Shown: positions 28,606 through 31,920 of the stretch, in pieces
How the letters are laid out: the number at the start of each line of letters is the position of its first letter
Numbering within the stretch: position 1 is the stretch's first letter
Assembly: GCA_963693055.1 (NCBI GenBank)
Contig: OY843751.1
Location: 2,144,001-2,208,000 of the forward strand
Length of the DNA stretch: 64,000 nucleotides
Reading direction: 5' to 3'
From: a bacterium
GTDB taxonomy: Bacteria; Zhuqueibacterota; Zhuqueibacteria; Residuimicrobiales; Krinioviventaceae
Made by a program: the position numbers and the translations under genes
The notes under the pieces: model-generated
Databases searched by the model: none
Told to the model about the DNA's origin: nothing
Seen by the model: only the letters and a program-made list of their open reading frames with translations

Positions 28606-30033
28606 ATGAAACTCAAAATTATTTGTTTTACTTACTGTCTATTTATCTCAATTAATAGTACAAGTTTTTCACAAGATTATTATGCAAATGGTCAGATTTT
28701 TAATGAATTGGATATCGCTCTTGATAGTTTATACATAAACAATGGTTACACTGGGATTTCTACTGCATTTTTATTACCTGATGGTCGTATTTGGACACGA
28801 GCAATAGGATATTCAAATATATCAACTTTAGAGAATCTTGATACATTGATGCTTCTCAGTGGTGCGAGTATTACAAAGACTTTTACTTCTTCTTTAATAC
28901 TCGAGTTATTAAATGAAAATTTTTTGAATTTAAGCGATTCTTTATATCAATGGTTACCTAGTTATAAAAATATTGATACTACTATTACAATTAAACAATT
29001 ATTAAATCATACAAGCGGAATATATGACTATTCTGAAAATGTACTTGGAAAAATATCAATTTTTTTAGATCCAGAAAAAATTTGGAAGCCAGAAGAAATA
29101 TTAGGATTCGTTGAAGAACCGTATTTTGATCCAGGTACTGATTGGAAATACTCTAATACTAATTATATATTATTAGGTATGATAGCAGAAAAAATAATTG
29201 ATAACTCGACAGTGTCAAATGAATTAAGACAAAGATTCTTTAATAAATATAATTTAAATCATACATTTTTTGAAATTAAAGAGGAAATACCGGATTCATT
29301 AAAAATTGCACATGGTTATATCGATGTTAATAATGATGGGATAAAGGATGATATTGAATTCTTTTCAAGAAATGCTATTTATAGTGCGGCTTGGGCAGCT
29401 GGTGCAATAGTTTCTACTCCAAAAGATTTAGTTAATTGGGCCAATTATTTATTTAATGGCAATGTGATAAATCAAAATTTACTAGATAAAATGATTGATT
29501 TTGAACCTGTTGATTTGCCTGAATCTTCACACATTATTGGTTATGGACTTGGGCTAATGCAATACAACATAAATAATTACGAATTTTGGGGGCACAGTGG
29601 AAATATACCTGGTTTTACTAGTGAATTGGTATATTCACCCGAGTTGGAAATTATTTTATGTGTATTGATTAATGAAAATGATGCAAATATAAATTATATA
29701 ACAAAGACTCTTGTTTCTACATTTACTAGTTTCAATACATCAATAAATAGATACGAAAGTAAAAATATTTCTAATTTTGAAATGTTAAATACCTATCCAA
29801 ATCCATTCAATCCTTTAACACATATTGTTTTTAAAAATTCAATCATGTCAAATGTAGCAATATCTATTTATAATCTAAAGGGACAACTTGTAGAAATTGT
29901 TTATGATCAGCAAACACCAGTAGGAACTCACAACGTGTTGTGGAATGCAAGCGAACAACCATCGGGTACCTATTTTATTAAGATGATTGCAGGTGAATTT
30001 CAGCAAATCCAAAAATGTATATTGATAAAATAA
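28606..30033 (+). CDS. serine hydrolase (beta-lactamase class C / D-Ala-D-Ala carboxypeptidase family) with C-terminal T9SS/FlgD-Ig sorting domain
   Basis: SITK, LLNHTSG, YSN and GHSG motifs; C-terminal YPNPFNP...IYNLKGQLV...SGTYF. Confidence 0.9.
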   Translation: MKLKIICFTYCLFISINSTSFSQDYYANGQIFNELDIALDSLYINNGYTGISTAFLLPDGRIWTRAIGYSNISTLENLDTLMLLSGASITKTFTSSLILELLNENFLNLSDSLYQWLPSYKNIDTTITIKQLLNHTSGIYDYSENVLGKISIFLDPEKIWKPEEILGFVEEPYFDPGTDWKYSNTNYILLGMIAEKIIDNSTVSNELRQRFFNKYNLNHTFFEIKEEIPDSLKIAHGYIDVNNDGIKDDIEFFSRNAIYSAAWAAGAIVSTPKDLVNWANYLFNGNVINQNLLDKMIDFEPVDLPESSHIIGYGLGLMQYNINNYEFWGHSGNIPGFTSELVYSPELEIILCVLINENDANINYITKTLVSTFTSFNTSINRYESKNISNFEMLNTYPNPFNPLTHIVFKNSIMSNVAISIYNLKGQLVEIVYDQQTPVGTHNVLWNASEQPSGTYFIKMIAGEFQQIQKCILIK

Positions 30034-30138
30034 GGAAAATTTTCCGGTAGGTTTTGGAAAAAAGGCGGTTATTTCATATAGTATTTAAAGGAAGTAACCG
30101 GAAGTCAAACAAGGATTTCAAAACTTACCGGAGGACAA

Positions 30139-30939
30139 ATGTACAATACTCGTAGTAGTTTGTATGACAGGATATTAGAAAAAACACCCGAGCAAGTATT
30201 CATCAATTCTTTACGAAAGGAATTTGAATTATCACCGGCAGAAAGTAAAGGGATATTGGATCTGGCAAAACAGTGTTTATTTGGCGAGGTTCCCCAGACA
30301 GTTGGTAAAATAAAATATATCTGCGCATCCACAAATGCAAAACATGGCAAGCCCCTGGGTGAGCAGGAATTGAAAGAAGTAGAGTTAACACTGGATGCTG
30401 GTGTAGAAGATTTAAATGTATTAAAGGAAAGCGGTCCCAAAGCATTACGGCAGCTAAAGGTATTGCGATTGACTGAAGAAGCCTGGGGCCAGGAAGGTTC
30501 TTTGACACAAGAGGATTTGGCCTGGATCCTCCAGGTTACGAGTCGCACTGTACGCCAGGATATAAAGGCATTGCAGGCAGACGGCAATTTTGTTCACACA
30601 CGCGGAACAGACCATGACATCGGTCGGAACTTGTCACACAAAAGCCGCATTATTGAACTGTATTTGCAGGGTGACACATACGATGCAATTATTCGTAAAA
30701 GTCGTCATAGTGCATTTTCAATAAAGCGATATGTGTGCAGCTTTGGCAGGCTATTACTTTTATTGAATCATGGTATGCAAGATATCAAGGAGATCAGTCG
30801 GTTATTAGGCCAAAGTGAGCGTTTGACCCGTGAATATCTGGATATTTTTGAGCATCATAAACAGGGTGACAAATGGCCGTCGATCTATGTAGAGTTATTG
30901 GACCAATTAAAGGTGTTATACCCCTCGAAAAAAAAATAA
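30139..30939 (+). CDS. DUF1670 domain protein A
   Basis: RLTEEAWGQEGSLTQEDLA...RTVRQDI...TRG...DIG...SHK...HS...RY pattern. Confidence 0.8.
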   Translation: MYNTRSSLYDRILEKTPEQVFINSLRKEFELSPAESKGILDLAKQCLFGEVPQTVGKIKYICASTNAKHGKPLGEQELKEVELTLDAGVEDLNVLKESGPKALRQLKVLRLTEEAWGQEGSLTQEDLAWILQVTSRTVRQDIKALQADGNFVHTRGTDHDIGRNLSHKSRIIELYLQGDTYDAIIRKSRHSAFSIKRYVCSFGRLLLLLNHGMQDIKEISRLLGQSERLTREYLDIFEHHKQGDKWPSIYVELLDQLKVLYPSKKK

Positions 30940-30955
30940 ACCAAGGAGGGGAACG

Positions 30956-31771
30956 ATGAAGACTAAGCCTTTAAATCGTTATGAATCAATAGCTAAGCGT
31001 AGCTTTCAAAATGCTATTATTCGCTTACTGGAAGAAAATTATAAAATGTTAGGAAGCCATAAAGTCATCCGAATAATCGCAGAAGATATTGTCGCATTGC
31101 AAAATGAATTTTATCCGGAGCTGGAAAAGAAAAGTTTTGGTCAGATTATCTGGCGAACGACCAAAGCGACAAATCGAAAACCAAGCTATGGCACAAAAGC
31201 GGAAGATTATGAAGTTCAGACAGTTGTACTGCCATTGGTTACAGATGAAGACATTGACAATCGAATCAAGAGTCATTATTCTTATCGAGACAAAGATGGC
31301 AGAGCTGATTATGAGAAGCAGGTTGATCGGGATATTAAGGTAATGGCGCGGTTGTGCAAGAGTGCGGCGGAACAGGGTGGTTGGTTGACAGGCGCAGAAC
31401 TCAGTGTACTGTTAAATCGTTCATTAAACGCTATTGGTCGGTATATGACAATTTACCATGAAACACATGATGATATATTACCGACCAAAGGAATGATGCT
31501 GGATCAGGGCAGTAAGCCGACACATAAAGCCGCAATTATAGATTTATACGAGCAGGGCTATCCCGAACCGGATATCGCCCGGATCACAAATCACACAATT
31601 GAATCGACGAGTCGTTATCTCAAGACTTACAAGAACGTAAAGTTATTATTGGAAAAAGGTTTTAATTTAATGGAAATGGTAAGGATAACCGGATTAGGAA
31701 AAAAGACAATAACACAATATCGTGATCTGGTTTATCTTTATCATTCAGATTTAAAACAAAAGAAAACTTGA
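30956..31771 (+). CDS. DUF1670 domain protein B
   Basis: RLCKSAAEQGGWLT...PTKG..LDQG..PTHK..IIDLY..G...HTIESTSRY; paralogue of protein A; RBS AAGGAGG. Confidence 0.8.
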   Translation: MKTKPLNRYESIAKRSFQNAIIRLLEENYKMLGSHKVIRIIAEDIVALQNEFYPELEKKSFGQIIWRTTKATNRKPSYGTKAEDYEVQTVVLPLVTDEDIDNRIKSHYSYRDKDGRADYEKQVDRDIKVMARLCKSAAEQGGWLTGAELSVLLNRSLNAIGRYMTIYHETHDDILPTKGMMLDQGSKPTHKAAIIDLYEQGYPEPDIARITNHTIESTSRYLKTYKNVKLLLEKGFNLMEMVRITGLGKKTITQYRDLVYLYHSDLKQKKT

Positions 31772-31920
31772 AAATTTGAAAAGGAATTTATAGGTTAGGT
31801 TGTCACAATTTTTAGCTAACTCCAGTCGCCCTACGGGCTCCTTCCGTTAGCTAAAAAAATGATTCAATCTTCTAATCTTAAAAAACAACCTACCGGAAAT
31901 ATTTCCTAAACGTAAATAGT

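Follow-up and report, generated by a model that had tools for sequence, protein, structure and literature searches.

A two-gene DUF1670 element at the ends of sorting-domain genes and its candidate recombinase

The stretch of DNA analysed here, referred to as the window, comprises 64,000 nt (OY843751.1, 2,144,001-2,208,000) of a closed bacterial genome of 6.5 Mb. It contains an element of 1,884 bp (30030-31913, plus strand) whose only cargo is two DUF1670 genes, orfA (30139-30939, +; paralogue A, 266 amino acids (aa), E 1.5e-46) and orfB (30956-31771, +; paralogue B, 271 aa, E 2e-47). The element sits in the last codon of a host target gene (28606-30033, +), which encodes a beta-lactamase-like serine hydrolase with a C-terminal sorting domain (CTD; Por_Secre_tail; Pfam PF00144 and PF18962). 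The two DUF1670 proteins are 29% identical over 135 aa, in agreement with the original prediction, made from the letters of the window, that the unit consists of two paralogous genes.

Ends, copies and target sites

The ends of the element were set by comparison among copies. The closed genome holds seven full copies of this family (F1), including the window copy, which is 92.5-92.7% identical to its six sisters; these are 99.7-100% identical among themselves. A second family of DUF1670 pairs (F2) has six copies, identical over the aligned parts shown, with about 30% protein identity to F1 and different inverted repeats (IRs). Two other genomes with long contigs hold 8 and about 19 elements. 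In the window, the left IR (30033-30053, +) and the right IR (31887-31907, -) are complementary at 19 of 21 positions, and each encloses a perfect 12-bp palindrome, a likely protein-binding site (30034-30045 in the left IR). These repeats had been correctly described in the original prediction, and their architecture is kept around homologous DUF1670 pairs. However, the prediction took the IRs as the ends of the element (30033-31907), whereas they are sub-terminal. Outside them lie a short terminal extension of 3 bp on the left, ATA (30030-30032, +), and a long one of 6 bp on the right, AAACGT (31908-31913, +; identical in 7/7 copies, 7 bp in the F2 type). AA adjoins each end. The left AA (30028-30029, +) corresponds to bases 1-2 of the host's last codon according to junction comparison, and the unitig common to all copies begins at 30028. 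The right AA, followed by the displaced original gene end ATAG (31914-31919, +), was assigned by analogy with the empty allele of a sister copy.

This empty allele, of the sister copy L002, is found in contigs of 38,213 and 4,036 nt from two runs of one other sample, which skip exactly 1,886 nt, that is, 1,884 + 2. Since the flanks differ at 28/497 and 61/481 positions, the source of the allele is a related strain or species. In another genome (G176, Poribacteria), a relative 77% identical in protein A to elements that target CTD ends is inserted in a 32-bp palindrome resembling repetitive extragenic palindromic (REP) sequences (e.g. G176 C2:3693-3724), of which the genome has 398 copies; three occupied palindromes with both ends equal the empty palindrome plus the element plus AA. 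The earlier view that there is no clear target duplication is therefore replaced by an AA repeat at 30028-30029 and 31914-31915 and a gain of exactly 2 bp in the sister copy. For the window's own locus, no empty allele was present in the contigs of four runs, and the flanks were not found in 30 related genomes. The search for other copies and empty sites nevertheless defined both ends and target, and the 7 + 6 copies, conserved ends and empty alleles bear out the proposal of an uncatalogued transposable element with a two-paralogue gene set. The family is mobile, and the unit in the window is almost certainly a mobile element. The contrast in base composition that had been pointed out also stands, with a GC content of 0.38-0.44 within the element and 0.24-0.30 in its flanks. 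It is the flanks, however, that are the AT-rich part, because the genome mean (0.394) is near the element's GC content.

Scars of older insertions are also present as relics (G000:C1:1730447(+), 5975648(+), 3844075(-), 5684749(-) and 333436(+)): four F1-type short ends stand alone at gene ends whose sequence resembles CTD stops, and one long end likewise stands alone. Two further copies, L217 and L218 of genome G172, differ in their left flanks but are flanked identically on the right, suggestive of either recombination between copies or duplication of the target.

The product of the host gene ends in ...CILIK*, and the junction comparison indicates that the element contributes the stop and, before it, the third base of the Lys codon. 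The stop codon (30031-30033), at which the unit had been supposed to begin, thus lies inside the element and is supplied by it; the original gene end would have been Lys-TAG. ATA together with the first IR base restores Lys-stop and is the same in all F1/F2-type junctions tallied, which are pattern-defined. The layout is gene end, 2-bp core, ATA, the two IRs, 6 bp (7 in F2), core and RTRR. The tally comprises 90 distinct sites from many genomes, collected with F1- and F2-clade patterns and restricted to those with both ends and a left flank of 32 nt or more. The same dinucleotide is found on both sides in 88/90 junction pairs (83 AA/AA, 3 AG/AG and 2 CG/CG). Two pairs are mismatched, and one further mismatch, at a contig edge, is excluded by the flank rule; the mismatched junctions are AA with TG, CA with AA and CG with AG, the last sharing AG with the core of a close relative. 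RTRR follows the right core in 83/90 sites. The base following the left core is always the element's, although the target's own sequence there differed from ATA in 42/90 sites, so that the crossover is limited to at most 2 bp.

A CTD-like last strand is recognised by a crude test at 82/90 sites, and three of the eight failures resemble CTD ends by eye. In the genome under study, which has 204 CTD gene ends, 11 of the 13 elements (7 F1 and 6 F2) lie at the Lys-stop of CTD genes and supply a new stop; of the remaining two, one is stacked behind another element at a CTD end and one is located elsewhere. Orientation is fixed: the short end faces the gene in both families, F1 genes being co-directional with the host gene and F2 genes opposed to it. 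Of the 2,695 genomic occurrences of the 8-bp core motif, just 55 are at CTD ends, whereas a 36-bp profile yields 218 genomic sites, 121 of them at CTD ends. Because the core motif is far less CTD-specific than the longer profile, recognition must extend well into the coding side. Elements stack because the short end rebuilds the target site, and a sequence resembling another short end follows 7/90 sites by a loose pattern, at least one case being doubtful. An F1 and an F2 element are stacked at a single gene end at G000:C1:507846-511583, and at G000:C1:1346328-1350143 an F1 and an F2 element occupy the ends of two convergent CTD genes, about 80 bp apart.

One way of achieving such targeting would be an RNA guide similar to the bridge or seek RNAs of IS110/IS1111, with the DUF1670 pair as the protein part. 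This would fit the IS1111-like geometry of the ends and the use of different targets, CTD ends and a palindromic repeat, by relatives at 77% identity; in addition, one 8-nt match beat 100/100 shuffles in one family and another reached 5 of 100. RNA guidance is nonetheless highly improbable. Ten of 12 tests for simple complementarity, in four families, remained at shuffle level, as did the palindrome-targeting family with its almost invariant target. One active element has merely ~105 + 42 nt of non-coding DNA, and no Rfam match was obtained (best E 0.49). Moreover, the target is conserved at every third base only, and the CTD and palindrome types of target share AA at -15/-14, T at -8 and -5, and the core. 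The sequence TTATTTCAT in the left end was considered as a target guide and rejected, as it is not conserved and lies within the promoter spacer.

The DUF1670 proteins and their candidate active site

Both genes are under purifying selection, with ratios of non-synonymous to synonymous substitution rates relative to a sister copy of 0.087 (orfA) and 0.12 (orfB). The window orfA stops 9 codons early (CAA>TAA), the product being 275 aa long in all six sister copies. In a quick tree, the A proteins form one clade and the B proteins another (SH-aLRT 100), the subtrees largely match, and the A/B split is ancient; by inspection, IR type tracks protein clade. An A9 run (30928-30936, +) is the likely slippage site joining orfA to orfB, whose +1 frame contains no stop between the run and the gene. 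Among the 42 non-redundant A/B pairs that were aligned, a run of at least 7 A marks the junction in 29, and most others have A4-5 and then G. The frame of B relative to A is -1 in 29 pairs, +1 in 13 and never 0, and it is open back to the run in 40/42, related lineages not being independent. The conserved A-run thus likely fuses the two open reading frames (ORFs) by slippage, and the early stop in the window orfA would not block an A-B fusion made in this way. Natural fusions of 530-545 aa carrying two intact units exist. The heterodimer assumed in the original prediction may, on this reading of the frames, partly be a single A-B fusion chain. Long proteins consisting of DUF1670 only are also known, of 930-952 aa (P0136, P0141, P0144, P0156) and of 506-572 aa (P0190, P0203 and others); these proteins combine one degenerate unit with one or two intact ones and possibly represent larger elements with an extra DNA-binding unit.

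The AlphaFold2 models (predicted local distance difference test 87 for A and 83 for B) combine a helical N-terminal part and a small sheet of two strands with a winged helix and two more helix-turn-helix (HTH) units; apart from the sheet, they are all-helical. Foldseek gave no match at E <=0.001 against the PDB and viral models. In wide structural searches, the matches listed were all HTH or winged HTH (wHTH) domains, with best Z scores of 6.5 (A) and 6.7 (B); these searches hardly probed residues 1-96. The top match for B was 1d3y, the winged helix of topoisomerase VI-A/Spo11 (Z 6.7, root-mean-square deviation 2.3, 62 residues), tied with generic wHTH domains; it ranked 17th for A. The alignment has no invariant Tyr in the wHTH that matches 1d3y, and Toprim was not among the listed matches. 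A sequence search of the PDB returned wHTH regulators only, and a protein atlas search returned DUF1670 clusters only, with nothing above 0.81 once these were set aside.

Neither ORF has a Pfam match to a DDE, HUH or serine-recombinase domain, in line with the earlier remark that no such motif is recognisable. PF00239/PF07508 are also absent from the top 25 Pfam families of a wider set of 96 homologues, and no catalytic Ser motif is invariant in both proteins. The same holds for the DEDD domains PF01548/PF02371, which match neither ORF nor occur among these top 25 families. The invariant His residues are 23 residues apart, and the HxxR motif is not present in the A or B alignments. Weak matches to an IS630 model were obtained for 5/45 B proteins (best E 5e-4), probably through the HTH.

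The motifs T(R/K)G, (S/T)HK and H(S/T)xxSxxRY noted earlier are found in both proteins, and their H...Y end had been likened to that of tyrosine recombinases. According to this explanation, the pair would be a heterodimer of highly diverged Int-family enzymes. The invariance of R, H, H, Y and K in both paralogues, the presence of two paralogues, as in XerC/XerD, and a spacer flanked by palindromic binding sites speak for it. The resemblance does not withstand comparison, however. Alignment with hhalign against a small set of six Int-family domains from the host gave probabilities of 0.12% (A) and 0.89% (B). Pfam, NCBIfam and PHROGs yielded DUF1670 and generic HTH matches only, none to the Int family, and PF00589 is absent from the top 25 Pfam families of the 96 homologues. 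The structural comparison listed HTH/wHTH domains and no Int-family entry, in a type of search that does not exclude families it does not list. In the AlphaFold2 model, the H...RY motif forms the turn and recognition helix of an HTH. The crossover spans at most 2 bp, with no carried 6-8-bp coupling sequence. An Int-family origin is consequently very unlikely.

A candidate active site can be proposed from conservation. In A, R155, D160, H167, H190 and Y198 are invariant in 42/42 aligned sequences, and K168 also belongs to the candidate set; in B, H190, K191, H213 and Y221 are invariant in 42/42, and R132 is also listed as invariant. Among the 96 homologues, R155 is kept in 96, H167 in 94, H190 in 93 and Y198 in 93. 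Fourteen longer proteins have 2-3 scored units each, and H/H/Y is kept in 21/21 intact units, while Y233, the equivalent Tyr of the last HTH, varies even among these (16/21). Eleven N-terminal units are degenerate. Seven of these can be aligned across the region; they have I/V/L in place of H190 in 7/7, and Y198 and H167 are each lost in 6/7. Losses of this kind would be expected if the residues were catalytic and the scaffold had been retained. Because intact units always keep the His and Tyr of the H...RY motif while degenerate ones have lost them, a Tyr nucleophile in another fold is possible. The Arg/Asp/His/His/Tyr set is thus a candidate active site, and a His-His-Tyr centre in particular is put forward tentatively, at slightly less than even odds.

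These residues also bear on the alternative that the DUF1670 proteins are DNA-binding adaptors which recruit a host enzyme, such as a topoisomerase, XerCD or the transposase of another element. Both models are arrays of HTH and winged-HTH domains without a known catalytic fold, and the genome offers possible partners in 7 Int-family genes, 1 resolvase-family gene and IS3-type DDE genes; its single PF00239 gene is located away from the element. On the other hand, the invariant polar residues lost in degenerate repeats look catalytic, and the same end geometry is found from many bacterial phyla to archaea, whose host enzymes differ. Furthermore, 3/5 multi-copy hosts, this closed genome included, are without an IS110-family transposase; mobilisation in trans by IS110 was rejected on the ground that PF02371 is missing from these three. 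The adaptor explanation is therefore considered quite unlikely, and the DUF1670 proteins probably perform the chemistry themselves.

Mode of insertion

The interpretation favoured here, with a rough probability of 0.55, is that of a multi-copy insertion sequence which enters the last codon of genes for secreted proteins and whose DUF1670 recombinase carries out conservative recombination at a 2-bp core by way of a circle. In the first step, A and B, or a slippage-derived A-B fusion, would bind the 12-bp palindrome of each sub-terminal IR via their HTH domains. The element ends would then be joined into a circle, itself inferred, which would be recombined into the target. Target readout would involve a degenerate sequence of ~20-35 bp, mainly on the coding side (AA at -15/-14, T at -8 and -5, the core and RTRR), recognised by protein-DNA contacts rather than an RNA guide. 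The strands would be cut with a 2-bp stagger and rejoined conservatively; in this step a covalent intermediate would probably form at the Arg/Asp/His/His/Tyr cluster, which lies between the winged helix and the second HTH. Finally, the ATA(A/G) end of the element would regenerate both the stop codon and the target, which is why the host gene would stay intact and later elements could stack at the same site.

The main competing description of the junctions is that the DUF1670 pair is a new transposase generating a true 2-bp target duplication, through an IS630-like staggered cut and fill-in with a strong preference for AA and no carried core. The gain of exactly 2 bp relative to empty sites is as expected from such a duplication, as are the matched AG/AG and CG/CG junctions at genes ending in Arg; the two ORFs linked by an A-run and the weak IS630-model matches among B proteins point in the same direction. 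This explanation is less easily reconciled with the absence of RNase-H/DDE folds from the matches listed for either model, the sub-terminal and asymmetric IRs and the existence of the mismatched pairs. In each multi-copy genome, the core is AA at every copy (11/11 CTD sites here, and 8 and ~19 in two others), although another dinucleotide is present in 12-21% of candidate targets; the joint chance of this uniformity is ~0.002 on rough backgrounds. Because of this uniform use of AA and the rare mismatched junctions, a carried core is modestly preferred, and a duplication is regarded as unlikely.

Several points weigh against recombination at a carried core by a DUF1670 enzyme. An AA preference combined with a 2-bp duplication explains the matched junctions and the all-AA genomes equally well, and the few mismatched junctions can be accounted for by mutation, recombination between copies or assembly. 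A search of contigs assembled from 6 runs, in which rare forms are lost, revealed no circle junction with abutted ends. The tally of 90 sites was built on patterns for two clades only, and in Bacillota clades AA cores lie in AT-rich DNA with no CTD, so that CTD targeting is not family-wide. D160 is kept in only 78/96 homologues. No Int, DDE, HUH or serine recombinase, nor RNase-H, is found among the top 50 matches of either fold search; since the best matches are HTH/wHTH domains only, catalysis by A and B is inferred.

Occurrence, surroundings and known systems

The family occurs in 33/167 genomes of the phylum and in 335 confirmed stretches of GTDB genomes. The best 80 of these 335 include Ignavibacteriota, Poribacteria, Bacillota, Chloroflexota, Nitrospirota, Spirochaetota, Pseudomonadota and two archaeal groups; Methanosarcina acetivorans, among the controls, was also positive. 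The DUF1670 family as a whole comprises 1,021 clusters at 50% identity. No relatives were found among 72,556 plasmids with the F1 A protein as query or among 50,697 phages with the F2 A protein. DUF1670 genes are annotated as regulators ('biotin operon repressor', 'DtxR family'), and because of these labels the elements have been overlooked as mobile DNA. A full-text search, with subscription papers, supplements and ISfinder outside its range, found no published description of a DUF1670/PF07900 element. To that extent, the family is apparently undescribed.

Non-coding features of the left end may influence expression. A long hairpin predicted at 30040-30135 (+; -34.7 kcal/mol) pairs the inner IR with the orfA ribosome-binding site. 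A sigma-70-like promoter candidate for orfA-orfB (30054-30082, +; TTGGAA-17-TATAGT) is a consensus match only, one of 18 in the region. The predicted unpaired probability of the Shine-Dalgarno sequence is 0-0.26 on host read-through RNA vs 0.46-0.96 from the internal start. The hairpin is thus predicted to close the ribosome-binding site when transcription reads through from the host gene, but to leave it open on RNA that starts at the internal promoter candidate. Across 33 elements, hairpin arms pair better with their own partner than with those of other elements (-18.1 vs -13.6 kcal/mol), own-arm pairing being better in 30/33 (permutation test, 0/10,000), a result inflated by kinship. RNAalifold on a MAFFT alignment retained only an 8-pair invariant stem with one covarying pair. 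A further hairpin, in the right non-coding end (31809-31857, +), was not scored as a terminator.

In the surroundings of the element, a type I restriction R-subunit-like gene (23232-26486, by motifs only) is followed by an AT-rich block (26574-30033; GC 0.24-0.30) with a PIG-L deacetylase gene and the target gene. Just right of the element lies a palindrome with 18-bp arms (31965-32001), whose centre TTCCCACCGTGG recurs 232 bp on, at 32188-32222. A decayed IS3-type element with many stops (32406-33595, -) has two ~80% identical copies at G000:C1:1513577 and 2672793, the former encoding HTH_Tnp_1 and rve integrase-core ORFs. Secretion ATPase- and secretin-like genes, identified by reading, occupy 33812-38541.

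The prokaryotic transposases known so far belong to a handful of catalytic classes. The balance of evidence leans slightly towards a new class of transposase or recombinase here, apart from the DDE, DEDD, HUH, tyrosine and serine enzymes. It would be pseudo-dimeric and built almost wholly of HTH units, with an Arg-Asp-His-His-Tyr site on an HTH, convergent evolution towards IS1111-style conservative insertion at a 2-bp core, target readout by protein, and CTD gene ends as self-renewing safe harbours. If this is correct, a family that integrates with base-pair precision and has none of the folds of these classes would add a new chemistry of DNA breaking and rejoining, and DUF1670 would gain a function. 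Its small size (~1.9 kb with two 270-aa proteins), its directionality, the absence of a scar in the target gene and the different targets of close relatives make the element open to direct testing and attractive as an integration tool.

Individual features are shared with several known systems. Tyrosine recombinases (XerCD, RIT elements, the Tn916/Tn554 type) also display paralogous subunits, conservative-looking insertion and R/H/H/Y residues, but Int-family overlap regions measure 6-8 bp, whereas here profile similarity is lacking, no Int fold is among the matches listed, and a crossover of at most 2 bp occurs without coupling sequences. Serine recombinases and IS607 use a 2-bp core, as does this element, but the DUF1670 proteins match neither PF00239 nor PF07508. 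IS630/Tc1-mariner, IS1 and IS3 are similar in other respects: IS630 adds 2 bp at a preferred dinucleotide, and further traits in common are two out-of-frame ORFs fused by slippage on an A-run, a fusion that is likely in the DUF1670 pair, and HTH domains that bind the ends. The DUF1670 element differs in that a DDE domain is absent, the same DUF1670 unit makes up both ORFs, the IRs are sub-terminal and the target is long and asymmetric. In Tn7, TnsD reads the 3' coding end of a conserved gene at attTn7 and directs harmless insertion in one orientation. Protein readout of a gene's 3' coding end, as proposed for the DUF1670 pair, and a single orientation are common to both systems; the present target, however, consists of ~200 paralogous gene ends per genome and is cut inside the last codon, without TnsABC machinery.

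The closest likeness is to IS1111 and IS110. In one study, IS1111 elements are described as having sub-terminal IRs, 7/3- or 6/3-bp extensions, specific targets, a fixed orientation and no conventional target duplication, and as moving via a circular intermediate (10.1101/2024.04.26.591405). Two further studies report recombination of IS110/IS621 at a dinucleotide core with REP targets (PMC11208160) and a RuvC-Ser catalytic site in IS110 enzymes (PMC11208158). The 3-bp and 6/7-bp extensions found here equal those so reported for IS1111. The DUF1670 element differs in encoding two paralogous HTH proteins in place of a DEDD/RuvC or Tnp-Ser domain, no guide-like sequence was found in DUF1670 elements, and PF02371 occurs nowhere in this genome. 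On these three grounds it is not a member of IS1111/IS110, which it resembles in the outcome of insertion.

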